From the NCBI RefSeq assembly GCF_044324875.1, contig NZ_CP172185.1: 64,000 bases of DNA, one strand, 5' to 3'. This DNA comes from Escherichia coli (GTDB taxonomy: Bacteria; Pseudomonadota; Gammaproteobacteria; Enterobacterales; Enterobacteriaceae). The notes below the pieces were generated by a model. It did not search any database and was not told where the DNA came from. It was given only the letters and a program-made list of their open reading frames with translations. Both the position numbers and the translations under genes were made by a program. Positions 18,080-64,000 of the stretch are shown one piece after another; the first letter of the stretch is position 1, and each line of letters begins with the position of its first letter.

Positions 18080-19690
18080 TCAGTTGTCGCCTTTGAATAC
18101 GGTTCCCGCAGGGAGCACTGGCGTTTTTTCCAGGACTTCAACCGGTGTCTGCGGGAGATAATGTTCAACTTGATGAGCCGGAATGTCGGCGTAATCCTGT
18201 TTCAGCCAGCGAATAAATCCGCCGACTTTCACCAGTAAAATGACGAGGAACGGAAGGGCTGTGAGTACGACGGTGGTTTTCATCGTTTCCAGCGACGCGC
18301 CAGTGAAAAGAATTGAAAGCGGGATCAGGGTAATTACCACGCACCAGAAAAGACGCAGCCCACGGTCAGGATCGTCACCTTCCTGGAGATTACGCGTACT
18401 GGTTGCCGCCATGGTGTAGGCCACCGCATCCATATGCGAGGCAAGGAAAATAATCATCACGCCCAGGTATGCGGCGAGGAACAATTTACCGGCTGGCAAC
18501 GACATCAGAACTTGCTGCACAGCTGTCTCGCCGCCCAGTGTTTCCAGCACCTGTGGGACGTTGATTACACCATTGATAAACTGGTGAATGGCATAGCTTT
18601 CCATTACGCCGAAGAAGAACCAGCAACCGACGGTGCTGCCGAGGATCAGTCCCCAGATAACTTCTTTAATCTTACGACCGCGGGAAACGCGGGTGACAAA
18701 CATTGCTACGCCAGGCGTGTATGAGATCCACCACAGCCAGTAGAAAACGGTCCAGTTGCGGGTAAATGAACCATCGCCAAGCGGATCGGTGAATAAGCTC
18801 ATTTGCAGGAAGTTTTGCGTGGTCAGGCCGATGGCATTGATGATGCTGTTGGTAATAAATTCGGTTGGACCGACAATCAGCACCAGTAATGGCAGCAGGA
18901 ACGCGCCCCAGCCAACCATTTTGCTCAGACGTTGCAAACCGTTGTTGATACCAATCCACGAGCTTAGGCAAAAAATGCCGCCGGAAAGCAGTATCACAAA
19001 TGCCTGCACGGTGAAGTTATCGGGTAAACCGGTCAGCGCGGAAAGCCCACGAGTAAAGGTTGCTGCGGTAACAACAAGGGAAATGGTCAGCGCACCGACA
19101 GTGGCGATCAGGAACATCAAATCGACCAGTTTTCCCCACGGGCCTTGCGGGCGAACGCCGGTAATCGCGGCAATAATGCCGGAAAGGCTCAGACCTTTGT
19201 TTTTCCGCACATGAAAGTGATAAGCCATGATTAATGAGGCCAGCGTATAAGTTGCCCAGGCGCTGATGCCCCAGTGGAAGAAGGAGTAAGGGACGCTAAA
19301 TTCGAGTGCCTGTTGTGAACGCGGTGCGATATTTAATCCAGGTGTTTGATAATAATAGGCCCATTCAGCAACCCCCCAATAAAGCGTAGAAGAACCTAAA
19401 CCGGCACAAATAAACATAAACAGCCAGGAGAGCGTGCTGTATTCCGGTTTTCCTTCGCCAAGACGAATATTGCCGTATTTACTGGTGGCTAAATAAATCA
19501 CCAGTCCCATTGCCAGCAAAACCAATACCTGTACGGCGGAACCTAACGTACGCGTAACAAAAGTGTATATAGCGTTGGCCGCGTCGGCCGATTGTTGTGG
19601 GAAAAGGCTTAATGCAGCTGCGATGAAAAGAATGGCCACCAGGCTGATGCTTATCAACGGCACATCTTTTTTCTTAACATTGCTCATCAT
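18080..19690 (-). CDS. yeaV: BCCT-family transporter YeaV (betaine/carnitine/choline type)
   Basis: 536-aa ORF, multi-pass membrane protein; the N-terminal region resembles the CaiT N-terminus so the long ORF is kept; a shorter TTG-initiated form (481 aa) is possible. Confidence 0.85.
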
Positions 19691-19892
19691 GAGTCATCTC
19701 CTGGGCATAAAAGCCCGTCTCTGGCTTTTGCCAGTTGTAATTATTTGCAGGGTATGAGTTGTATGTTGTGTTTAACAAATTTATTATTTACATGTTACAT
19801 AAATTAAACAATTAAGAATACGGAAAGCCATAAAACACGAAACGGAAACAATAAAAGGTGAAATGACGCAGGTTATTTACTGCAAAGAACGA

Positions 19893-23046: not shown

Positions 23047-23083
23047 GTAAGCGTACAGCGAGGGCCGTATTGACGGGGATGTG

Positions 23084-24622
23084 TTATTCAGCTGGCAGTG
23101 CTATGCGCCACGGAAGCAGTTCGCTGACCCGGTTGACCGGCCAGTCTGCTATGACGCCAAGCACATGGCGAAGGTAGCTTTCTGGATCCACGTCATTCAG
23201 TTTGCACGTCCCTATCAGGCTGTACAGTAGCGCTCCCCGCTCACCACCATGGCCAGAGCCGAAGAACAGGAAGTTTTTACGACCCAGACTTACCGCCCGC
23301 AGGGCATTTTCAGCGATGTTGTTGTCGATTTCCACCCAGCCATCGTTCGCATAGTACGTCAGTGCCGGCCACTGGTTAAGTGCGTACGCGAACGCCTTCG
23401 CCAACTCTGAGTGTCGCGACAGGGTCTTCATCTTTTCACGCAACCAGCTTTCCAGGGATTTCAACAGCGGTTTCGTTTTTCGCTGACGTTCAGCAAGCCG
23501 CTGCTCTGCCGGCATTCCCCTTATATCCGCCTCTATGGCGTACAACTGACCGATCTGCTCCAGGGCTTCTTCCGTCAGTGCTGACGGGATGCGGACGTGC
23601 ACATCGTGGATCTTTCGGCGGGCATGAGCCCAGCAGGCAGCTTCCGTTATCCCACCATTGCGATACAGCTCGTTGAACCCGGCGTACGCATCCGCTTGCA
23701 GCACACCGCTGAAGCAAGCAAGATGAGTCTGCGGATGGATGCCTTTTCTGTCCGGGCTGTAAGCGAACCACACTGCAGGTGCCAACGCTGACCCGGCATT
23801 GCGGTCATCACGAACATACGCCCACAACCGCCCGGTCTTCGTCTTCTTATTACCCGGCATCAGTACCTGGACCGGGGTATCATCGGCATGGAGTTTGCCG
23901 TCAGTCATGACATAGCCATGAAGCGCCTCTTCCAGCGGAGACAGCAGCCGGCAGCATGCATCCACCCAGCCCGACAGCAGTGAACGGCTCAGCTCCACAC
24001 CTTGCCGGCCGTATATTTCTGACTGGCGATACAGCGGGGTGTGCTCTGCATACTTCGAGGTCAGCACGCGGGCCAGCAGCCCCGGTCCGGCGATACCCCG
24101 CTCGATGGGCCGCGAAGGTGCAGGTGCCTGCACGATGGCATCGCACTGAGTACAGGCATGTTTTTCCCGTACCGTCCGGATAACCCGGAAGGCGCTACGC
24201 ATCAACTCCAGCTGTTCGGCGGTATCCTCGCCCAGATAGCTCAGTGAACCGCCGCAGTTCGGGCAGCACGGCGCCGCAGGCAACAGTCGCTTTTCGTCAC
24301 GGGGTAGTGATTCAGGGAACGGCTTACGGATGCGGGTCTGACGCAACGGACGCTGTACTGCCGGGTCATACACCCTACCAGTCAGCGTATCGCTCTCTTT
24401 CTGAAGCTGGTTCAGATCGGCTTCCATTTGTGCGATACGGCGGGAGACTTTTTCGGAACGACTGCCGAAGTTCATCCGGCGGAGTTTATCCAGCTGCGCC
24501 TGCAGATGGTCTATTTCGCGCTCCCGGTTGCTCAGCTTTTCCTGCAGGGCGTGGATCAGCGCTTCCTGTTCGGCCAGGCGCTGTTTCAGCAGGAAGATGT
24601 CGTCAGAAGAGATGTCGTTCAT
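23084..24622 (-). CDS. IS66-family transposase TnpC (orf3)
   Basis: 512-aa ORF with N-terminal coiled-coil/leucine zipper, zinc-finger-like CxxC pair and DDE region typical of IS66 TnpC. Confidence 0.9.
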
Positions 24623-24671
24623 AAGCCCGTATTTTACCGGGCTTATTCTGTGACAACCAGGATAAAGAGAT

Positions 24672-25019
24672 TTACAGCATGGTCAGGGAGGTCAGCAGCC
24701 GCTTAGGCTGTCGCCAGTCGATACCTTCCAGCAGCATCGCCAGCTGCGCCTGTGTAAGGAACACTTTGCCATCACGGGCTGACGGCCAGGCGAAGCGCCC
24801 ACGCTCCAGCCGTTTGGTCAGGAGGCACAGTCCGTCACCGGTGGACCACAGCAGTTTAACCTGACTGCCGCTGCGGCCCCGGAAAATGAAAACATGGCCG
24901 GACATGGGATCGTCTTTCAGCGCCGTCTGTACTTTCGCAGCCAGGCCGTTGAAGCCATTTCTCATATCGGTGATACCGGCAACCAGCCAAATTTTGGTCC
25001 CGGAAGGTAAAGGGATCAT
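24672..25019 (-). CDS. IS66-family accessory protein TnpB (orf2)
   Basis: 115-aa [30 protein letters not shown]...; start overlaps the tnpA stop (ATGA) as is typical. Confidence 0.88.
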
Positions 25020-25417
25020 CGCTTCAGTTCCTGTATCAGCAGAGTCAGGAGCTTTTCGCTGACATTGCCATTGAAGCGGAGCGTCCCGTGCCGGAACGTT
25101 ACCTCACAGCTGATACTGAGGGTTTCCGGGTCCTCTGCGAGCGATTCTGGCTGTTCGGCAGCTGCATCGAGAGTCACAGGAAGTAGCTGGGGGCTCTCTG
25201 AAGAAGGTAATAGCAGCTTTCCCTCGCGCCATTGTTGTCGCCATTTGAACAACAGATTGGCGTTAATGCCATTTTCAAGAGCAAGTTTTGAGATGGATAT
25301 CCCGGGTTCACAGGAGGCAGCAACGAGCTGCTGTTTAAATTCGGGAGGATAATTAGGGCAGCCTTTTCGCCTGCCGGGAGTCACATTTTTCTGCATATCT
25401 GACACTTTGGTTCCCAC
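25016..25417 (-). CDS. IS66-family accessory protein TnpA (orf1)
   Basis: 133-aa ORF upstream of tnpB within the same element. Confidence 0.85.
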   Translation of the reverse strand: MGTKVSDMQKNVTPGRRKGCPNYPPEFKQQLVAASCEPGISISKLALENGINANLLFKWRQQWREGKLLLPSSESPQLLPVTLDAAAEQPESLAEDPETLSISCEVTFRHGTLRFNGNVSEKLLTLLIQELKR

Positions 25418-25488
25418 TACTTATTTGGTGGACACCACTTTGTCTAATTCGTCAGATTCTGACCAGACGGTTCAGGCTGTACGCTTAC

Positions 25489-35148: not shown

Positions 35149-36444
<1,296 letters not shown>

Positions 36445-36544
36445 CTACATTTGCCAACTGTATGCTACGCCTGTGTTGCCGCTTCTCTGGCCCACGGTTC
36501 GCTGTCGTTGTAGGCCCGGTAGCATGTGTACCGGGCCAGGGTTG

Positions 36545-38479
36545 TTAAGACGATTTACGTACGCGCAAATACCATTCGCACAGTAAACGCACCTGTTTAC
36601 GGGTGTAGCCTTTTTCCATCATACGGTCGACAAAATCGTCGTGTTTCTTCTGCTCGTCGGTTGACGTTTTGGCGTTAAACGAAATAACCGGCAACAGCTC
36701 CTCGGTATTGGAGAACATTTTCTTCTCAATAACCGTGCGCAGTTTTTCATAGCTGGTCCAGTTAGGATTGCGTCCGCTGTTATTCGCTCTGGCGCGCAGT
36801 ACGAAGTTAACAATCTCGTTGCGGAAATCTTTTGGATTACTGATCCCCGCCGGTTTCTCGATTTTCTCCAGCTCGGCGTTAAGAGACTCGCGGTCAAACA
36901 ACTGCCCGGTATCCGGATCGCGATACTCCTGATCCTGAATCCAGAAATCCGCGTAGGTAACATAACGGTCGAAAATGTTTTGCCCATATTCGGAATAGGA
37001 TTCAAGGTAGGCCGTCTGGATCTCTTTGCCGATAAACTCGGCATATTTCGGGATCAGATAACCTTTCAGGAACTCCAGATAGCGTTCTGCCTGCTCTTGC
37101 GGGAACTGCTCGCGCTCGATCTGCTGTTCCAGGACGTAGAACAGATGGACCGGGTTTGCCGCCACTTCTACATGATCGAAGTTGAACACGCGGGAGAGGA
37201 TCTTAAACGCAAAACGCGTCGACAGACCGTTCATCCCTTCATCGACACCGGCGTAGTCACGATATTCCTGATACGACTTGGCTTTGGGATCTGTGTCTTT
37301 CAGACTTTCGCCATCATAAACCCGCATCTTTGAATAAATGCTGGAGTTTTCTGGCTCTTTAAGGCGCGAAAGAATGGAAAAACGTGACAGCGTTTCCAGC
37401 GTGCCAGGGGCGCAGGGGGCGTGAGTCAATTCACTGTGATTAAGCAATTTCTCGTAGATTTTGATCTCTTCGGAAATGCGCAAGCAATACGGCACCTTCA
37501 CGATGTATACACGATCGAGGAAGGCTTCGTTGTTTTTGTTATTACGGAAAGTGACCCATTCGGATTCGTTCGAGTGGGCGAGAATAATCCCGTTGAACGG
37601 CAGGGCGGAGATACCTTCCGTCCCGTTGTAGTTACCTTCCTGAGTGGCGGTTAGCAAGGGATGCAGCACTTTAATCGGTGCTTTAAACATCTCAACGAAT
37701 TCCATGATCCCCTGATTGGCGCGGCACAGCGCACCGGAATAGCCGTAGGCGTCCGGGTCATTCTGCGCGTAGTGTTCGAGTTTACGAATATCGACTTTCC
37801 CAACCAGCGCGGAGATGTCCTGGTTGTTCTCATCACCGGGTTCCGTTTTGGCGATAGCAATTTGTTGCAGAATTGACGGCCAGACCTTCACTACCCGGAA
37901 CTTAGTGATATCGCCACCAAATTCATGCAGGCGTTTTGCCGCCCACGGCGACATGATGGTGCCGAGATAACGGCGAGGAATGCCATACTCTTTTTCCAGA
38001 ATCTGCGCATCTTCCTGCGGATTGAAAAGACAGAACGGATGATCGTTGACCGGGCTACGCTCACCGTTGGCGCTCAATACATAAATCGGTACGAGCTGCA
38101 TTAATGATTTCAGTCGCTCAGCAAGCGATGATTTACCCCCACCCACAGGCCCCAGCAGATACAGGATTTGTTTCTTCTCTTCCAGCCCCTGAGCCGCGTG
38201 TTTCAGATAAGAGACAATCTGTTCAATCGCGTCTTCCATGCCGTAAAACTCTTCAAATGCCGGATAACGTGCAATGACCCGGTTAGAAAAGAGTCGAGAA
38301 AGTCTGGGTTCCTGGGCTGTATCGACCATGACAGGCTCACCGATAGCCATCAATAGCCGCTCAGCCGCGTTGGCATAAGCACTGCGATCTTGCCGACAAG
38401 TGGTAAGAAACTCCTGCAGTGTGAACTCTTCGTCCTTGGCAGCTTCATATCGCTGGCGATAGTGATCGAATATATTCAT
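36545..38479 (-). CDS. yeaG: PrkA-family serine protein kinase YeaG
   Basis: 644-aa ORF with Walker A (GPVGGGKSS) and PrkA-type kinase region. Confidence 0.92.
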   Translation of the reverse strand: MNIFDHYRQRYEAAKDEEFTLQEFLTTCRQDRSAYANAAERLLMAIGEPVMVDTAQEPRLSRLFSNRVIARYPAFEEFYGMEDAIEQIVSYLKHAAQGLEEKKQILYLLGPVGGGKSSLAERLKSLMQLVPIYVLSANGERSPVNDHPFCLFNPQEDAQILEKEYGIPRRYLGTIMSPWAAKRLHEFGGDITKFRVVKVWPSILQQIAIAKTEPGDENNQDISALVGKVDIRKLEHYAQNDPDAYGYSGALCRANQGIMEFVEMFKAPIKVLHPLLTATQEGNYNGTEGISALPFNGIILAHSNESEWVTFRNNKNNEAFLDRVYIVKVPYCLRISEEIKIYEKLLNHSELTHAPCAPGTLETLSRFSILSRLKEPENSSIYSKMRVYDGESLKDTDPKAKSYQEYRDYAGVDEGMNGLSTRFAFKILSRVFNFDHVEVAANPVHLFYVLEQQIEREQFPQEQAERYLEFLKGYLIPKYAEFIGKEIQTAYLESYSEYGQNIFDRYVTYADFWIQDQEYRDPDTGQLFDRESLNAELEKIEKPAGISNPKDFRNEIVNFVLRARANNSGRNPNWTSYEKLRTVIEKKMFSNTEELLPVISFNAKTSTDEQKKHDDFVDRMMEKGYTRKQVRLLCEWYLRVRKSS

Positions 38480-38582
38480 GGTATGCCGTCCTTTCGTTTT
38501 TTAGCACAGGTTAAGAGCCGTTCATATGAATAGTAGAGGCTCCCGGAAGAGGTAAACTGAACGACGTCTCTTGCTAAAACAC

Positions 38583-38598
38583 AGCAACTCTCATGCCA
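38583..38598 (-). promoter_or_regulatory. Putative sigma54 (-24/-12) promoter of yeaG-yeaH: minus-strand TGGCAT-N5-TTGCT
   Basis: Minus-strand sequence TGGCATGAGAGTTGCT matches TGGCAC-N5-TTGCW spacing and core GG/GC, about 105 bp upstream of the yeaG start; yeaGH is reported to be NtrC/nitrogen-starvation induced. Confidence 0.5.
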
Positions 38599-38914
38599 TT
38601 TTATCGACGATGAGAACAACGTGCCCGGTGATACACCTTCAAAATTAAGCGTAGATGGCAAATGGAAAACTTGCCTGCACGGCTTTCTTAATTTCAATGG
38701 CATATCAACAACTCATCCATAAATTTTGCATAATTAATGTAAAGACCAGGGTCGCCAGTAACGCTAAATTCATTTGGCTGTAAGCGCGGTGTCATCCGCG
38801 TCAGGAAAATTAAACAGTTACTTTAAAAAATGAAAACGTAAAAAGGTTGGGTTTCGATGTATTGACGGGTAAACTTTGTCGCCCGCTAAACATTTGTTTA
38901 AGGAATGATTAATT

Positions 38915-39661
38915 GTGACCAAACTCAAACTTCTGGCACTTGGAGTGCTTATCGCAACGTCTGCAGGCGTAGCGCACGCTGAAGGTAAATTTTCCCTGGG
39001 CGCAGGCGTAGGTGTCGTTGAACACCCATATAAAGATTACGATACCGATGTTTACCCAGTACCGGTAATCAACTATGAAGGCGATAACTTCTGGTTCCGT
39101 GGCTTAGGTGGTGGTTACTACCTGTGGAATGACGCAACGGACAAACTTTCAATTACCGCTTACTGGTCGCCGCTTTACTTCAAAGCTAAAGACAGTGGCG
39201 ATCACCAAATGCGTCACCTGGATGACCGTAAGAGCACCATGATGGCTGGTCTGTCTTATGCTCACTTTACCCAGTACGGTTACCTGCGTACCACCCTGGC
39301 TGGCGATACCCTGGATAACAGCAACGGCATTGTCTGGGATATGGCCTGGTTGTATCGTTACACCAACGGCGGCCTGACCGTGACTCCGGGTATTGGTGTG
39401 CAGTGGAACAGCGAAAACCAGAACGAATACTATTATGGCGTATCGCGCAAAGAGTCCGCTCGCAGCGGTCTGCGTGGCTATAACCCGAACGACAGCTGGA
39501 GCCCTTACCTGGAGCTGAGCGCCAGCTACAACTTCCTCGGCGACTGGAGTGTTTACGGTACCGCGCGCTACACCCGTCTGTCTGATGAAGTTACTGACAG
39601 CCCGATGGTGGATAAATCCTGGACTGGCCTGATTTCTACCGGGATCACCTACAAATTCTGA
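38915..39661 (+). CDS. mipA: MltA-interacting outer-membrane protein MipA
   Basis: 248-aa ORF with signal peptide (MTKLKLLALGVLIATSAGVAHA) and C-terminal aromatic residue typical of outer-membrane beta-barrels. Confidence 0.9.
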   Translation: MTKLKLLALGVLIATSAGVAHAEGKFSLGAGVGVVEHPYKDYDTDVYPVPVINYEGDNFWFRGLGGGYYLWNDATDKLSITAYWSPLYFKAKDSGDHQMRHLDDRKSTMMAGLSYAHFTQYGYLRTTLAGDTLDNSNGIVWDMAWLYRYTNGGLTVTPGIGVQWNSENQNEYYYGVSRKESARSGLRGYNPNDSWSPYLELSASYNFLGDWSVYGTARYTRLSDEVTDSPMVDKSWTGLISTGITYKF

Positions 39662-39692
39662 TAATGCATCTTTCCAGGGCATTTTGTGCATA

Positions 39693-39718
39693 AAAACAGG
39701 GCGTCACGCCCTGTTTTG
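39693..39718 (+). terminator. Rho-independent terminator of mipA (aaaacagggcgtcacgccctgtttt)
   Basis: Perfect GC-rich hairpin flanked by A and T runs. Confidence 0.6.
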
Positions 39719-39750
39719 CATTACGGTGGTGCAATACCTGGGAGGAAACA

Positions 39751-40039
39751 ATGCAACAAAAAATGATTCAATTTAGTGGCGATGTCTCACTGCCAGCCAT
39801 AGGGCAGGGAACATGGTATATGGGCGAAGATGCCAGTCAGCGCAAAACAGAAGTAGCTGCACTACGCGCGGGCATTGAACTCGGTTTAACCCTCATTGAT
39901 ACCGCCGAAATGTATGCCGATGGTGGTGCCGAAAAGGTGGTTGGGGAAGCATTAACCGGTCTGCGAGAGAAGGTCTTTCTCGTCTCTAAAGTCTATCCGT
40001 GGAATGCTGGCGGGCAAAAAGCGATAAATGCATGCGAAG
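39751..40039 (+). pseudogene. yeaE: yeaE 5' fragment (aldo-keto reductase, codons 1-96), interrupted by the IS21-family insertion
   Basis: ATG 39751 (MQQKMIQFSGDVSLPAIGQGTWYMGED...NAGGQKAINACE) then IS sequence; the reading frame resumes at 42683 with ASLRRLNTDYLDLYLLHW.... Confidence 0.85.
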
Positions 40040-40165
40040 TGCAAAATGGCATCTGAATCGATCGCAGTTTGGCATTCGAATCGATCATGATTTGGCATCC
40101 ATCTCCGATCACAGTTTGGCATCACAATCGATCACGATTTGGCATGCTTCCGATCATTGATTGGC
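40040..40165 (+). repeat. Left-end multiple terminal repeats of the IS21-family element (5-6 tandem copies of about 22 bp, each with a GATC)
   Basis: Tandem units gatcgcagtttggcattc / gatcatgatttggcatcc / gatcacagtttggcatca / gatcacgatttggcatgc / gatcattgattggcatcc seen in sequence. Confidence 0.65.
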
Positions 40166-40241
40166 ATCCTGCCAGTCACTCCGGGAATTAACTCTTTTCA
40201 CCACAGTCTCCATTGCCGTGTTTAAACCAGTGGAGACGTCA

Positions 40242-41807
40242 ATGTCCAGAAAGAGAAAATCCAGGAGCACTATGGAAACCTGTTTTAAGATCCTTCAGCT
40301 CAAGTTCGACAAGAAGCTGACTAACCGTTGTATCGGACTGACGTTACACATCAGCGCCTCAACCGTTTTTGAGGTTCTTGCCCGCTTCAAAGCCTCTTCT
40401 CTGTCATGGCCATTACCTGCTGATATATCCCATGACACGCTGGAGAAACTCATTTTTCCGCCCAAAGACACCTTTGCATCAGAGCTTGTAATGCCTGACA
40501 TGTTGTACTTCGATACGGAAATGAGAAAACCAGGTGTGACGCGGCAACTGTTGTGGATGGAATACAAGGCACAGGCGGGTAACAAAGCGATGGGATACTC
40601 GCACTTCTGCCGTTGCTACCGGGAGTGGAAAAAAACGCGACGTCTCTCCATGCGCCAGGAGCATCGTGCCGGCGAAAAGCTTTTTATCGACTTCTGTGGT
40701 CCTACGGTTCCTGTTATTAATCCGGACACCGGTGAGATACGCCGCGTGGCAATCTTCGTGGCCGTAATGGGGGCGTCCAACTATACCTACGTTGAAGCGT
40801 GCGAAGGTCAGGACATGATGTCATGGTTAAATGCCCACAGCCGTTGCCTGACCTTCCTGGGCGGCGTACCGAAGCTGCTCATCCCCGATAACCTCAGAAG
40901 CGCAGTGAAAAAGGCCGATCGATATGAGCCTGTCATCAACGACAGTTATCAGGCACTGGCTGAGCACTATGGCACGGTTATCATCCCGGCCCGACCACGC
41001 AAACCTAAAGATAAACCAAAAGCAGAAAACGGCGTCCTCATCGTTGAACGATGGCTTCTTGCCCGCATCCGTAATGAAACCTTCCACACGCTCAGGGCGC
41101 TGAATGCGCGCCTTAGGGAGTTACTGACAGACATGAATAACCGGCCAATGAAGGGGTACGGCAATCAAACCCGTGCAGAACGCTTCCGCATACTGGATGC
41201 GCCAGCACTCTCTCCGCTGCCTCTGGCACCTTATGAATACACGGAATACAAAGCTGTGAAGGTTGGCCCTGACTACCACGTTGAATATGCCCGTCACTGG
41301 TACTCCGTTCCACACGAACTGGTCGGTCAGCGTCTGTCACTGAAGGCGGGGCAGTCGGTGGTACAGCTCTGGCACAAGGGGCAGTGTGTGGCGCAACATC
41401 CGCGCAGCACACATGAATATAAACACACAACCAATCCGCTTCACATGCCAGAGCGCCACCGGCAGCACGGGACATGGACACCGGAACGCCTGATCGAGCA
41501 GGGAAAACGTACGGGCCCGTCCACAGGCCGGGTGGTTGAATCCATGCTGAAGGCAAAACCCCATCCGGAACTGGCTTATCGTGCAGTTCTGGGGCTGCTG
41601 GCACTTCAGAAAAAATACGGCCCGGAACGGCTGGAAAAGGCCTGTTACGTTGCCCTGCACTATAACGCCCCTGACAGACGCTTTATCGACAATCTGCTGC
41701 GTCACCATCGGGAGAACCTGGAGCTTCCATTATCCCGCCAGGGCGAACAACATCCGGCATATGCTTCAGAGCATGAAAACCTGCGTGGTCCGGGCTACTA
41801 CCACTGA
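40242..41807 (+). CDS. istA: IS21-family transposase IstA
   Basis: ORF 40161-41807; start placed at MSRKRKSRSTMETCFKILQLK... (HTH N-terminus followed by a DDE integrase core). Confidence 0.88.
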   Translation: MSRKRKSRSTMETCFKILQLKFDKKLTNRCIGLTLHISASTVFEVLARFKASSLSWPLPADISHDTLEKLIFPPKDTFASELVMPDMLYFDTEMRKPGVTRQLLWMEYKAQAGNKAMGYSHFCRCYREWKKTRRLSMRQEHRAGEKLFIDFCGPTVPVINPDTGEIRRVAIFVAVMGASNYTYVEACEGQDMMSWLNAHSRCLTFLGGVPKLLIPDNLRSAVKKADRYEPVINDSYQALAEHYGTVIIPARPRKPKDKPKAENGVLIVERWLLARIRNETFHTLRALNARLRELLTDMNNRPMKGYGNQTRAERFRILDAPALSPLPLAPYEYTEYKAVKVGPDYHVEYARHWYSVPHELVGQRLSLKAGQSVVQLWHKGQCVAQHPRSTHEYKHTTNPLHMPERHRQHGTWTPERLIEQGKRTGPSTGRVVESMLKAKPHPELAYRAVLGLLALQKKYGPERLEKACYVALHYNAPDRRFIDNLLRHHRENLELPLSRQGEQHPAYASEHENLRGPGYYH

Positions 41808-41823
41808 CAGAAGGAACAACAGT

Positions 41824-42579
41824 ATGAGTGATAACCTGTTAAACAAACTGACCCAACTGAAACTCCCGGCGATGGCCGGGAGCCTGATACGGCAGCGGGA
41901 AACGCCTCAGACCTACGACGAACTGTCGTTCGAGGAAAGGCTGACGCTGCTGGTTGATGACGAGCTTCTGAGCAGGGAAAACAGCCGTGTGGCACGGTTG
42001 AGAAAAAATGCCGGCCTGAAATACCAGGCAACACCGGAAGGGCTGCGCTATCCGGCCTCAAGAGGTCTGCGGGCTGAACAGATGAGAGAACTGCTGAACG
42101 GCCACTACATAACCCACAGGAAAAACCTGCTGATAACCGGTCCGACAGGATGTGGCAAGAGCTGGATAGCCAATGCGCTGGGCGAACAGGCATGTCGACA
42201 GAAACACAGCGTCCGGTACTGTAGAACCGGGCGATTACTGGAACAACTGGCTCAGGGACGTGTTGATGGCAGCTGGCTGAAATATCTGAAACAGTTGCAA
42301 AAAATACAGGTTCTAATCCTGGACGATCTGGGGCTGGAACAGTTAAGTAACGCCCAGTGTAATGACCTTCTGGAGCTCATAGAGGATCGTTACGGACAAA
42401 GCAGCACGATAGTGGTAAGCCAGTTCCCGGTAGATAAATGGCATGGTCTGATGGAGAACCCAACAACAGCAGATGCCATCCTGGACAGACTGGTACATAA
42501 CTCACACCGAGTGGTCCTTCAGGGAGAGTCACTGAGGAAAAATCCCCCGGTAGTGGAAAGCAGCGAAAAAACGCGTTAA
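41824..42579 (+). CDS. istB: IS21-family ATP-binding helper protein IstB
   Basis: Start ATG 41824 (MSDNLLNKLTQLKLPAM...) after an AGGAA-type RBS; Walker A (GPTGCGKS) and Walker B (LILDDLG). Confidence 0.88.
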   Translation: MSDNLLNKLTQLKLPAMAGSLIRQRETPQTYDELSFEERLTLLVDDELLSRENSRVARLRKNAGLKYQATPEGLRYPASRGLRAEQMRELLNGHYITHRKNLLITGPTGCGKSWIANALGEQACRQKHSVRYCRTGRLLEQLAQGRVDGSWLKYLKQLQKIQVLILDDLGLEQLSNAQCNDLLELIEDRYGQSSTIVVSQFPVDKWHGLMENPTTADAILDRLVHNSHRVVLQGESLRKNPPVVESSEKTR

Positions 42580-42678
42580 AAAGCGGTAGAAAAAGTTAAG
42601 TTCCCGGTTGATCGAATGGATGCGAATCGCTGATCGGACTTCGATGCCAATCCGTGATCGAATAGAGCGGAATACGCA

Positions 42679-43249
42679 CGAAGCCAGTTTACGCCGTCTC
42701 AATACTGATTATCTCGATCTCTACTTATTACACTGGTCTGGCAGTTTCGCTCTCGAAGAGACTGTCGCAGCGATGGAAAAATTGATCGCCCAGGGCAAAA
42801 TCCGCCGCTGGGGCGTTTCTAACCTTGATTATGCCGATATGCAGGAACTCTGGCAGCTGCCGGGGGGGAATCAGTGTGCCACTAATCAGGTGCTTTACCA
42901 TCTCGGTTCACGAGGGATTGAGTACGATCTACTTCCCTGGTGCCAGAAACAGCAGATGCCGGTGATGGCTTACAGTCCGTTAGCTCAGGCCGGGCGGTTG
43001 CGCAATGGGCTGCTAAAAAACGCAGTAGTCAACGAAATTGCACATGCTCACAATATCAGCGCGGCACAAGTATTGTTAGCGTGGGTAATCAGCCATCAGG
43101 GTGTGATGGCGATTCCAAAAGCGGCCACGATTGCCCATGTCCAACAAAATGCGGCTGTGCTTGAGGTTGAATTTTCGTCAGCGGAATTAGCTATGCTGGA
43201 TAAGGCATATCCGGCACCAAAAGGAAAAACTGCGCTGGATATGGTGTGA
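42679..43249 (+). pseudogene. yeaE: yeaE 3' fragment (aldo-keto reductase C-terminal part)
   Basis: In-frame continuation ASLRRLNTDYLDLYLLHWSGSFALEETVAAMEKLIAQGKIRRWGVSNL... ending at 43249. Confidence 0.85.
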
Positions 43250-43299
43250 TATTGATACGTGCCGGATGCATCGCACCCGGCACACAACATTAACGCAAA

Positions 43300-44184
43300 T
43301 TAACGTTTCGCAACGCGAATGGATTGCGCCAGATGTGCAGGTTTTTCTTTGGTCACTTTTTGCGTTTCTGAAGCGTAAGCCGTTTCTACACAAACAAAGG
43401 TTTTGTAGCCATCGTCCGGCATATCGCCCATGCTAACTGAAAGCGCCGGTCCTGGGTTCCAGCCAACGACGTTCAGATGATGCTGGTGGCCTACGGCGAT
43501 AATACGATTCAACGCTTCGTCATTAATCACGCTGCAATCTTGCGGATTCAGATACACGCGATCGGTACGGTCAGGGAAGGTCTGAATACCGTCGGTCAGT
43601 ACATCTTCTTTCGCGTCATTCACTTTATCAATGAAGCGATCGCCCAGTCCACTGACGCTTACCTTAGTGATATCACCCACGTTAAAGTAGGTATGCAGGG
43701 CAGAGGTGGTTTCAAATTCGCCGTGTGCTTCAAGATCGATTTCACAGGCTTTACCCACGCGGAAATGCGCTAATAGCGTAAAGTCGTGCGGCCAGAATTT
43801 TTTCGTCTCTTCGCTTTGTGTCAATTCAAAAGTCAGCGCTACGCCATCAGCATCTTCACGATGTGATTTCAGCGTCCACGGCAGGTTGCGGGCAAAACCG
43901 TGCGCAGGCAGACCTTGTTGTGCAGCCGGACCAAACCACGGCCAGCAAACCGGTACGCCACCGCGAATAGCGACGCCATTTTTGAACGGTGTGTTATTGC
44001 TCAACCACAGAACTTCTTCTTCACCTGCAGGTTTCCATGAGAGAAGGTGTGCGCCCTGTAATGCAAAAGAGGCTTTTACCTGGGGATGATCGACCACAAT
44101 GAGGTCCAGTTCATCCAGTTTACGACGGGAGAGGACAGGGGAGATTTGTTCGATGACCGGAAGGGCAAAAATTTTCTTAATCAT
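43300..44184 (-). CDS. yeaD: Putative glucose-6-phosphate 1-epimerase (aldose 1-epimerase family) YeaD
   Basis: ORF 43300-44205; start placed at MIKKIFALPVIEQ... to give 294 aa. Confidence 0.9.
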   Translation of the reverse strand: MIKKIFALPVIEQISPVLSRRKLDELDLIVVDHPQVKASFALQGAHLLSWKPAGEEEVLWLSNNTPFKNGVAIRGGVPVCWPWFGPAAQQGLPAHGFARNLPWTLKSHREDADGVALTFELTQSEETKKFWPHDFTLLAHFRVGKACEIDLEAHGEFETTSALHTYFNVGDITKVSVSGLGDRFIDKVNDAKEDVLTDGIQTFPDRTDRVYLNPQDCSVINDEALNRIIAVGHQHHLNVVGWNPGPALSVSMGDMPDDGYKTFVCVETAYASETQKVTKEKPAHLAQSIRVAKR

Positions 44185-61072: not shown

Positions 61073-63028
61073 ATGCGGTTGTTTATTGCCGAAAAACCGA
61101 GTCTGGCGCGCGCCATTGCTGATGTCCTGCCCAAACCGCACCGGAAAGGCGATGGCTTTATCGAGTGCGGTAATGGTCAGGTGGTGACCTGGTGTATCGG
61201 TCACCTGCTTGAGCAGGCGCAGCCAGACGCCTACGACAGCCGCTATGCGCGCTGGAATCTTGCTGATTTGCCGATTGTCCCGGAAAAGTGGCAATTACAG
61301 CCCCGACCCTCCGTGACCAAACAACTTAATGTCATCAAACGCTTCCTGCATGAAGCCAGCGAAATCGTTCACGCCGGTGACCCGGATCGCGAAGGGCAAT
61401 TACTGGTGGATGAAGTGCTGGACTATCTGCAACTGGCACCGGAAAAGCGCCAGCAGGTGCAGCGTTGCTTGATAAACGACCTGAACCCGCAGGCGGTTGA
61501 GCGGGCGATCGACCGTCTTCGTTCCAACAGTGAGTTTGTGCCGTTGTGCGTTTCTGCACTGGCGCGAGCCCGAGCCGACTGGCTGTACGGCATCAATATG
61601 ACCCGTGCGTATACTATTCTCGGTCGCAATGCCGGTTATCAGGGCGTACTTTCCGTGGGACGCGTGCAGACGCCCGTGCTCGGGCTGGTAGTGCGCCGCG
61701 ACGAAGAGATTGAAAACTTCGTGGCGAAAGATTTCTTTGAAGTCAAAGCGCATATCGTGACACCTGCCGATGAGCGGTTTACCGCTATCTGGCAACCGAG
61801 CGAAGCGTGTGAACCTTATCAGGATGAAGAAGGGCGCTTGTTACATCGTCCGCTGGCGGAGCATGTGGTCAACCGCATCAGCGGCCAACCGGCTATTGTC
61901 ACCAGCTATAACGATAAACGGGAATCAGAATCCGCACCGCTGCCGTTTTCGCTTTCGGCGTTGCAGATTGAAGCGGCAAAACGCTTTGGTCTGAGTGCGC
62001 AGAACGTGCTTGATATCTGCCAGAAGTTGTACGAAACGCACAAGCTAATCACTTATCCGCGTTCCGATTGTCGCTATCTGCCGGAAGAGCATTTTGCCGG
62101 ACGCCACGCAGTGATGAATGCCATCAGCGTTCATGCACCGGACTTGTTACCGCAGCCAGTGGTCGATCCAGATATACGCAACCGCTGCTGGGATGACAAA
62201 AAGGTCGATGCGCACCACGCCATCATCCCGACCGCACGGAGTTCTGCGATCAACCTGACGGAGAACGAAGCGAAGGTCTATAACCTGATTGCCCGTCAGT
62301 ATTTGATGCAGTTCTGCCCGGATGCGGTGTTCCGCAAGTGTGTTATCGAACTGGACATTGCCAAAGGCAAATTTGTCGCTAAAGCCCGTTTTCTTGCTGA
62401 AGCAGGCTGGCGCACACTGTTAGGCAGCAAAGAGCGCGATGAAGAAAACGACGGCACGCCGCTGCCTGTGGTGGCGAAAGGCGATGAGTTGCTGTGTGAA
62501 AAAGGTGAAGTGGTAGAGCGGCAAACCCAGCCGCCGCGCCATTTTACCGATGCAACACTGCTTTCGGCGATGACCGGGATCGCGCGCTTTGTGCAGGACA
62601 AAGATCTGAAAAAGATCCTTCGTGCGACCGATGGCCTGGGGACAGAAGCAACCCGTGCCGGGATTATTGAACTGCTGTTCAAGCGAGGCTTCCTGACCAA
62701 AAAAGGGCGCTATATCCACTCCACCGACGCCGGAAAAGCGCTATTCCATTCGCTGCCAGAAATGGCGACGCGACCGGACATGACCGCGCACTGGGAATCG
62801 GTGCTGACGCAAATCAGTGAAAAGCAGTGTCGCTATCAGGACTTTATGCAGCCGCTGGTGGGGACATTGTACCAGTTGATTGATCAGGCAAAGCGCACGT
62901 CGGTAAGGCAGTTTCGGGGAATAATGGCTCCCGGCGGTGGAGAAGGGAAGAAAAAGGATTCGCCACGCAAGAGAGCGCCGAAAAAAAGCCCGCCATCAGA
63001 AGAGGCGGGCAATGGAGTGATAACATAA
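61073..63028 (+). CDS. topB: DNA topoisomerase III
   Basis: ORF 61016-63028; start at [19 protein letters not shown]... 5 bp after the selD stop; Toprim and topoisomerase IA domains with a basic C-terminal tail. Confidence 0.93.
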
Positions 63029-63062
63029 AGGTTCTTTCAACCATCTGATACTGAAGATTTTT

Positions 63063-63081
63063 ATGGCCGGATAAGGCGTTT
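63063..63081. repeat. Half of a REP palindromic unit (GGCCGGATAAGGCGTT) interrupted by the IS3-family element
   Basis: The sequence immediately 5' of the IS end matches the reverse complement of the 3' half of the E. coli REP consensus (...GAACGCCTTATCCGGCC); the other half would lie beyond the window. Confidence 0.45.

Positions 63082-64000
<919 letters not shown>

Follow-up and report, generated by a model that had tools for sequence, protein, structure and literature searches.

An ISSso4-like IS21-family insertion sequence interrupts the methylglyoxal reductase gene yeaE in Escherichia coli

The window analyzed here is a 64,000-nucleotide stretch of Escherichia coli DNA (NCBI RefSeq assembly GCF_044324875.1, contig NZ_CP172185.1). 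Its yeaE locus, at 39751–43249 on the + strand, was found to be interrupted by a 2639-bp element at 40040–42678. We are almost certain that ISSso4, an element of the IS21 family, transposed into this chromosomal methylglyoxal-reductase gene and that the copy is intact and recently active, its activity being judged from its sequence. The components of the interrupted locus are as follows:

39751–40039, + strand: yeaE 5′ fragment, codons 1–96 (39751–40038) and base 1 of codon 97, with length and register as in K-12 b1781
40035–40039: left 5-bp copy of the CGAAG target-site duplication, where the K-12 site holds a single CGAAG
40040–42678, + strand: complete 2639-bp insertion sequence of the IS21 family, putatively ISSso4 or a close isoform, 5′-TG...CA-3′, with 100% full-length matches and ends shared by independent insertions
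40040–40168, + strand: left terminal region, with the terminal inverted repeat and six direct repeats with a TGGCAT core (putative IstA binding sites)
40242–41807, + strand: istA, DDE transposase, 521 aa (start ATG 40242) or 511 aa (start ATG 40272)
41824–42579, + strand: istB, AAA+ helper ATPase, 251 aa, with Walker A GPTGCGKS (residues 106–113) and Walker B LILDD (residues 164–168)
42608–42678, + strand: right terminal region, with the terminal inverted repeat, two clear repeats in inverted orientation (42643–42660 and 42619–42636), and a degenerate terminal copy
42679–42683: right 5-bp copy of the CGAAG target-site duplication
42684–43249, + strand: yeaE 3′ fragment, codon 97 onward to the stop codon

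Both junctions were read directly from the sequence. At the left junction, yeaE sequence ending in GCATGCGAAG is followed by the element starting with TGCAAAATGG, and at the right junction the element ends in GGAATACGCA and is followed by CGAAGCCAGTT. The 30-mer GCATGCGAAGTGCAAAATGGCATCTGAATC represents the junction of this yeaE/IS allele. The duplication is exactly 5 bp long because the bases bordering the two CGAAG copies differ (G versus A on the left, T versus C on the right). Codon 97 of yeaE (GCC) is cut after its first base and continues at 42683/42684. When 39751–40039 was joined to 42684–43249, a contiguous gene of 855 nt (284 codons and the stop codon) was restored. The uninterrupted K-12 yeaE (b1781) encodes methylglyoxal reductase, a member of the aldo-keto reductase superfamily. 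The reconstituted gene equals it in length and shows 22 nucleotide and 4 amino acid differences (97.4% and 98.6% identity, respectively, with 280 of the 284 residues identical), and no indels; the gene described here differs in being split by the IS at codon 96/97. The neighborhood mipA-yeaE-yeaD-gapA is arranged as in K-12, and the collinearity of the flanks with K-12 reaches both junctions, with the BLAST blocks overlapping by 5 bp only, at K-12 positions 1865348–1865352. Judged by this sequence identity and synteny, the interrupted gene is the yeaE (b1781) orthologue. The 3-kb empty site was contiguous in 5413 of the 5426 complete E. coli genomes. A chance origin of this arrangement is excluded by far, because the entire 2639 bp matches other genomes at 100% and the flanks are K-12-collinear up to the junctions. 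The first-pass annotation had described an element of roughly 2.64 kb inserted after codon 96, with TG...CA termini, a 5-bp CGAAG duplication, and istAB in the orientation of yeaE, and had concluded that the reading frame resumes exactly and that the gene is inactivated by insertion only; each of these points was borne out by the junctions, by the + strand position of all three genes, and by the comparison with intact yeaE.

The ends of the element resemble published IS21 ends in having terminal inverted repeats, TG...CA termini, and multiple repeats about 23 bp apart. In the left end, the TGGCAT cores start at 40047, 40070, 40093, 40117, 40140, and 40162, with a spacing of 22–24 bp. Target-site duplications in the IS21 family are 4–8 bp long according to the ISfinder description, and the 5-bp duplication at yeaE falls within the short duplications typical of the family. 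Eight independent copies found elsewhere share identical termini, and each is flanked by its own duplication (4, 5, 5, 6, 6, 6, 7, and 7 bp); the copy on plasmid pCT has a 6-bp duplication. The assigned termini are the true ends of the element because these eight copies stop at the same bases. Several partial junction matches ran a few bases past the IS end, and an end lying further out was considered on this account; the eight copies ruled it out. End repeats with 23-bp spacing have been reported for IS21 ends, and this spacing together with a 3′-CA end and a 5-bp duplication for the family member IS5376 (PMC10122671).

The gene content of the element was examined using family models and solved structures. 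IstA scored 284.6 bits against NF033546 (curated NCBIfam cut-off 160), and IstB scored 257.8 bits against NF038214 (curated cut-off 200) and matched PF01695 (IstB_IS21) at 1.2e-60. The start of istA is ambiguous between ATG 40242 (521 aa) and ATG 40272 (511 aa), and RefSeq copies are annotated with the second; the gap between istA and istB is 16 nt. Pfam reported the domains rve and Mu-transpos_C_2 in IstA. In the phmmer alignment of IstA to IS5376 IstA (PDB 8q4d/8b4h), residues D150, D216, and E262 (521-aa numbering) match the D, D, and E columns, making them candidates for the catalytic DDE triad of the family. IstB aligned to IS5376 IstB (PDB 8q3w/5bq5) with the Walker motifs conserved. Thus, the IS21-family assignment and the IstA-plus-IstB content proposed in the first-pass annotation hold, since both proteins exceed the curated IS21 cut-offs and NCBIfam, Pfam, and IS5376 homology agree; the description of IstB as a Walker A/B ATPase is likewise matched by its two motifs. 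For IstA, the proposed "HTH plus DDE" architecture stands in its DDE part. Pfam reported no HTH domain in IstA, and an N-terminal HTH is suggested by the coverage of NF033546, which spans residues 19–327. An HTH-type IS66 TnpA model matched residues 16–80 under its cut-off, and the alignment to the solved IstA begins only at residue 85.

The element has several features in common with IS5376 and the IS21 prototype: istA and istB as its two genes, a DDE core with a beta-barrel of the Mu-transposase type after it, an AAA+ IstB, TG...CA termini, repeats spaced by about 23 bp in the ends, and target duplications of short length. The relationship to IS5376 is distant (phmmer E ~1e-13 for IstA and ~1e-24 for IstB). 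IstA is longer here, with 511–521 aa compared with 400 aa in IS5376, and carries a C-terminal extension of ~120 aa to which Pfam assigned no domain. Six repeat cores are present in the left end and two or three in the right, whereas prototypical members are drawn with two per end (PMC10122671).

Sequence matches to a published annotation and to RefSeq allow the element to be called ISSso4 or one of its close isoforms. Over 2639 bp, it is 99.7% identical, with 7 mismatches and no gaps, to the one IS21-type element that plasmid pCT carries, and we found no structural difference between the two. By ISfinder convention, ~95% or more nucleotide identity denotes the same element or an isoform. The IstB proteins of this element and of the pCT copy are identical; RefSeq lists the latter as WP_001282653.1, "IS21-like element ISSso4 family helper ATPase IstB", and IstA differs from its pCT counterpart by the single residue change N104D (511-aa numbering). 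ISSso4 belongs to the IS21 family, and its ISfinder entry originally took its name from Shigella sonnei. The pCT element is listed as ISSso4 (PMC6361801); papers mentioning ISSso4 gave neither its sequence nor its length, so that the name is linked indirectly through pCT. Copies covering at least 80% of the element were present in 225 genomes, and a single genome had as many as 23 matching places, full and partial ones counted together. Full-length copies with 100% identity were found on both chromosomes and plasmids, mostly on conjugative plasmids and often from poultry-associated E. coli. This complete identity points to recent activity of ISSso4 in the genome.

Insertion by transposition is supported by the complete ends, the complete istA and istB, the 5-bp duplication, and the exact restoration of yeaE, and no evidence contradicting it was found. 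By the IS21 mechanism (PMC10122671, PMC11208146), IstA would bind to the repeats at each end and bring the two ends together, and ATP-bound IstB would assemble on the target DNA and activate IstA. IstA would then cleave at the terminal 3′-CA and join the ends to target cuts staggered by 5 bp, and repair of the resulting 5-nt gaps would yield the CGAAG duplication (PMC10122671, PMC11208146). This is a well-known element, putatively still active, and an ordinary insertion event.

The insertion is a simple knock-out of yeaE, which is not an essential gene in E. coli. The open reading frame of the 5′ fragment encodes 101 aa, of which 96 codons belong to yeaE and 5 to the element. It holds the putative aldo-keto reductase residues D50, Y55, and K80, and the putative catalytic H113 lies in the 3′ fragment, which has no start codon. 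As predicted from these positions, any product of the 3′ fragment would lack three of the four putative catalytic residues. The loss of yeaE is probably near-neutral, given that methylglyoxal and glyoxal are also substrates of several further aldo-keto reductases in E. coli (PMC5297802, review). No operon polarity is expected, since the next gene, yeaD, is convergent. Consequently for annotation, yeaE is a pseudogene in this strain, and the value of the observation lies mainly in annotation and strain typing, with the rare, clone-specific IS junction as a possible PCR or typing marker; the yeaE insertion raises no open biological question.

It had been suggested that the 3′ fragment could be transcribed from promoters within or upstream of the IS. 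In a simple, crude scan of 39600–43400 for sigma-70 and terminator-like sites, 1 site was found compared with 3.3 expected from shuffling. There was no sigma-70 consensus site on the + strand of this region, and neither the element nor the 3′ fragment of yeaE contained a + strand terminator-like site. The count, being below the shuffled expectation, does not argue for a promoter inside the IS or directed outward from it, although with so crude a scan a promoter could still be present; the lack of a terminator-like site from istB to the yeaE stop codon makes read-through from istB possible. Transcription of the 3′ fragment is speculation. A further reading is that the IS drives expression of the fragment, by istB read-through or an outward promoter, and that an IS-YeaE product retains or gains function. 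A 213-aa open reading frame (42608–43249) does begin within the right end of the IS, at TTG 42608, and places 25 IS-encoded codons in frame with YeaE residues 97–284, and a −35 box has been reported in the IS21 right end (PMC10122671). However, an open reading frame from a mechanical list is no evidence of a gene, no sigma-70-like + strand site was seen across the scanned region, and the product would be missing D50, Y55, and K80 of the tetrad together with about one third of the barrel, which makes catalysis implausible for an enzyme of this family. We therefore regard a functional fusion as very unlikely. It is similarly improbable that the insertion is non-neutral in any form, whether through selected loss of yeaE, through transcription leaving the IS antisense into the convergent yeaD-gapA, or through an active IS-YeaE fusion.

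Simple knock-out by transposition also has to be weighed against misassembly, in which a repeated IS would have been misplaced in yeaE. IS elements are a classical cause of such errors, and a search with the 401-bp left junction returned no record covering at least 80% of it among the 5426 complete E. coli genomes. Against this, a perfect 5-bp duplication with exact gene reconstitution is the signature of real transposition, and an independent short-read contig (Logan SRR31072984) matches window positions 35751–40066 at 100% identity, crossing the left junction. The contig stops 27 bases into the IS, and the gene called on it gives the same 101-aa truncated product. An assembly artefact is thus extremely unlikely. 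The public short-read contig with the junction was seen in three samples, which is compatible with a small clone carrying the allele and uninformative on selection.

The idea that the assigned termini lie inside a larger mobile element (a composite transposon or island), making the insertion longer than 2.64 kb, found no support and has practically no probability left, because a single copy of the element is present in the window, both flanks return to K-12 collinearity at the immediately following base and share no more than the 5-bp overlap, and the eight independent copies, each with its own duplication, end exactly at TGCAAAATGG and GGAATACGCA. Two other IS elements are present in the window, in unrelated genes and at distances of 14.5 kb and 20 kb; the types represented are IS1397 and ISEc8. 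The ISSso4 name and the density of IS elements may hint at Shigella as the origin of the window. Its best match was E. coli O158:H23, at 99.8%.

The + strand open reading frame (ORF) starting at 39751 encodes residues 1-96 of the aldo-keto reductase YeaE, followed by five codons of foreign sequence and a stop at 40056 (sequence read and ORF listing over 39751-43249). The foreign sequence is an insert whose left junction joins GCATGCGAAG to TGCAAAATGG and whose right junction joins GGAATACGCA to CGAAGCCAGTT. The features of the locus are as follows.

40035-40039 and 42679-42683: CGAAG direct repeat, either side of the insert
40040-42678: insert of 2639 bp, ends 5'-TG and CA-3'
40047, 40070, 40093, 40117, 40140, 40162: six TGGCAT cores of the left end (40040-40168), spaced 22-24 bp apart
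40242 or 40272 to 41807, + strand: istA, 521 aa from the first ATG, 511 aa from the second
41824-42579, + strand: istB, 251 aa, starting 16 nt past the istA stop
42643-42660 and 42619-42636: two clear right-end repeats (right end, 42608-42678), in inverted orientation, with one further degenerate terminal repeat

The TG...CA termini and the 5-bp CGAAG duplication proposed in the first-pass annotation were both seen at these junctions. Because the bases adjacent to the repeat are unlike on the two sides, the duplication is exactly 5 bp. Joining 39751-40039 to 42684-43249 gave 855 nt (284 codons and a stop), equal in length and register to E. coli K-12 yeaE (b1781) and free of indels against it; the two differ at 22 nucleotides and 4 amino acids. 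Excision thus restores a contiguous yeaE, as had been claimed. CGAAG is single at the corresponding K-12 site. When the full window was compared by BLAST with K-12 1,840,000-1,912,000, collinearity extended as far as 40039 and resumed at 42679, and the two blocks flanking the insert share 5 bp on the K-12 side. The reconstituted 3-kb empty site (mipA-yeaE-yeaD) aligned in a single piece in 5413 of the 5426 complete E. coli genomes, at 99.8% identity at best. The best match was an O158:H23 strain (99.8%), and identity over this reconstituted site (flanks from window 38540-44183) reached at least 99% in just 8/5426 genomes. The host lineage is thinly represented among these genomes. Window identity to K-12 was 97.6-98.5%.

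The yeaE junction itself was found in none of the 5426 complete E. coli genomes searched. However, a Logan contig of SRR31072984 (seen in 3 samples), which supports the left junction independently, argues against an insertion created by misassembly. This contig contains the exact 101-aa truncated product, including the five IS-encoded residues, and 4316 bp of it are 100% identical to window 35751-40066, stopping 27 bases inside the IS. A second alternative, that the termini lie inside a larger element, was ruled out by eight copies of the element from different genes. All start with TGCAAAATGG and finish with GGAATACGCA, and each lies between direct repeats of its own, 4-7 bp long (CCCGG, GTCAAT, GTAAA, CGCAGAC, AGGA, TTACCTG, GACTGG and GTATCC).

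The element belongs to the IS21 family, as first proposed: IstA, the transposase, scored 284.6 bits against a cut-off of 160, and IstB, the helper ATPase, 257.8 bits against a cut-off of 200 (NCBI curated IS21 models). Pfam identified an rve integrase core and a Mu-transposase C-terminal barrel in IstA, and IstB_IS21 (1.2e-60) in IstB. A C-terminal extension of ~120 aa on IstA has no Pfam match; it is a general property of the element, not of the yeaE locus. Both proteins align to their solved counterparts from the IS21-family system IS5376 (IstA, 8q4d/8b4h; IstB, 8q3w/8q4d/5bq5). D150, D216 and E262 of IstA align with the D, D and E of IS5376 IstA, and IstB contains Walker A (GPTGCGKS, residues 106-113) and Walker B (LILDD, residues 164-168) motifs. 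The description of IstA as "HTH plus DDE" held for the DDE part, whereas Pfam found no N-terminal HTH; only family-model coverage and the published IstA structure (PMC10122671) suggest one. The two istA ATGs (40242 and 40272) are in frame, 30 nt apart, each preceded by a Shine-Dalgarno-like sequence. ATG 40272, with AGGAG 7 nt upstream, is the start in the RefSeq annotation of identical copies. IS21 is reported to produce a full-length transposase and, via an internal start, a slightly shorter "cointegrase" (PMC10122671), and the two ATGs may serve as such starts.

IS21-family ends consist of multiple direct repeats 23 bp apart, to which IstA must bind; in IS5376 the terminal 3'-CA is reactive and target duplications are 5 bp long (PMC10122671). 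The present ends are asymmetric (six left versus two clear and one degenerate right) and carry more repeats than prototypical IS21 members, which are drawn with two per end; this is likewise general to the element, not to the yeaE locus. Under the IS21 model (PMC10122671, PMC11208146), an IstA tetramer would pair both repeat-bearing ends, IstB-ATP would assemble on the target DNA and activate IstA, the 3'-CA ends would attack target positions separated by 5 bp, and filling of the gaps would leave CGAAG on both sides of the element.

IstB of identical copies is RefSeq WP_001282653.1, "IS21-like element ISSso4 family helper ATPase IstB". Plasmid pCT (NC_014477.1), whose IS elements include ISSso4 (PMC6361801), carries exactly one IS21-type element, which is 99.7% identical to the window element (7 mismatches, 0 gaps). 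The pCT copy has an identical IstB, differs by one substitution in IstA, and is flanked by a 6-bp duplication, AAGTAT. From the RefSeq name and this near-identity, rather than an ISfinder reference alignment, the sequence is assigned to ISSso4 or a close isoform. In each of the 30 best records the full 2639 bp matched at 99.8-100%. Copies with 80% coverage of the element or more occurred in 225/5426 E. coli genomes, and one genome held 23 matching places, full or partial. Plasmid matches (506 records; Escherichia 427, Salmonella 31, Shigella 22, Klebsiella 13) were mostly on conjugative plasmids, and many 100%-identical copies came from poultry isolates. Since the window copy is identical to others and its genes and ends are intact, it appears to be an active element that inserted recently.

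yeaE is inactivated by the insertion. The presumed aldo-keto reductase tetrad (D50, Y55, K80 and H113) is divided between the two yeaE fragments. Read-through from the element into the 3' fragment is possible, if speculative: scanning from istB to the yeaE stop showed no + strand terminator-like site, and an ORF of 213 aa, starting at TTG 42608 and ending at 43249, joins the right end of the IS in frame to residues 97-284 of YeaE. However, the scan also showed no + strand sigma-70-like site, and the fusion product would lack three of the four presumed catalytic residues; little consequence would be expected. According to a review (PMC5297802), E. coli possesses nine aldo-keto reductases, and five of these act on glyoxal or methylglyoxal. 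In addition, ydjG, a further methylglyoxal reductase gene, lies within the K-12 interval covered by the window. Given these other enzymes, losing yeaE is probably close to neutral. The neighbouring yeaD and gapA converge on yeaE, and operon polarity is accordingly not expected. Overall, the first reading of an IS21 insertion in yeaE was confirmed as an observation and supported in its interpretation: the event is a textbook one, in which a catalogued IS has landed in a dispensable gene.

A second IS, of the IS66 family (ISEc8 type), occupies 23047-25488 (2442 bp), with its genes on the - strand.

25016-25417, - strand: tnpA
24672-25019, - strand: tnpB
23084-24622, - strand: tnpC

It has inverted ends (GTAAGCGTACAGC...) and an 8-bp duplication (GAATAAAC), and lies at K-12 position 1879891-1879898, inside yeaR, which is thus disrupted as well. 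A copy of IS1397 (IS3 family; window ~63058-64000) starts ~30 bp past the topB stop (63028) and exits the window. Collinearity with K-12, which has ynjI there, stops at 63003, and IS1397 likewise adjoins topB in three complete genomes (97-99% identity). Three different IS families inside 64 kb suggest an IS-rich strain. Window 19563-19785 comprises 223 bp missing from K-12 at 1883151, immediately before the start annotated for yeaV in K-12, and in the window the minus-strand frame extends through it to an upstream ATG at ~19690. As this segment is found in 2925/5426 complete genomes, it is a common polymorphism, K-12 having the short form.
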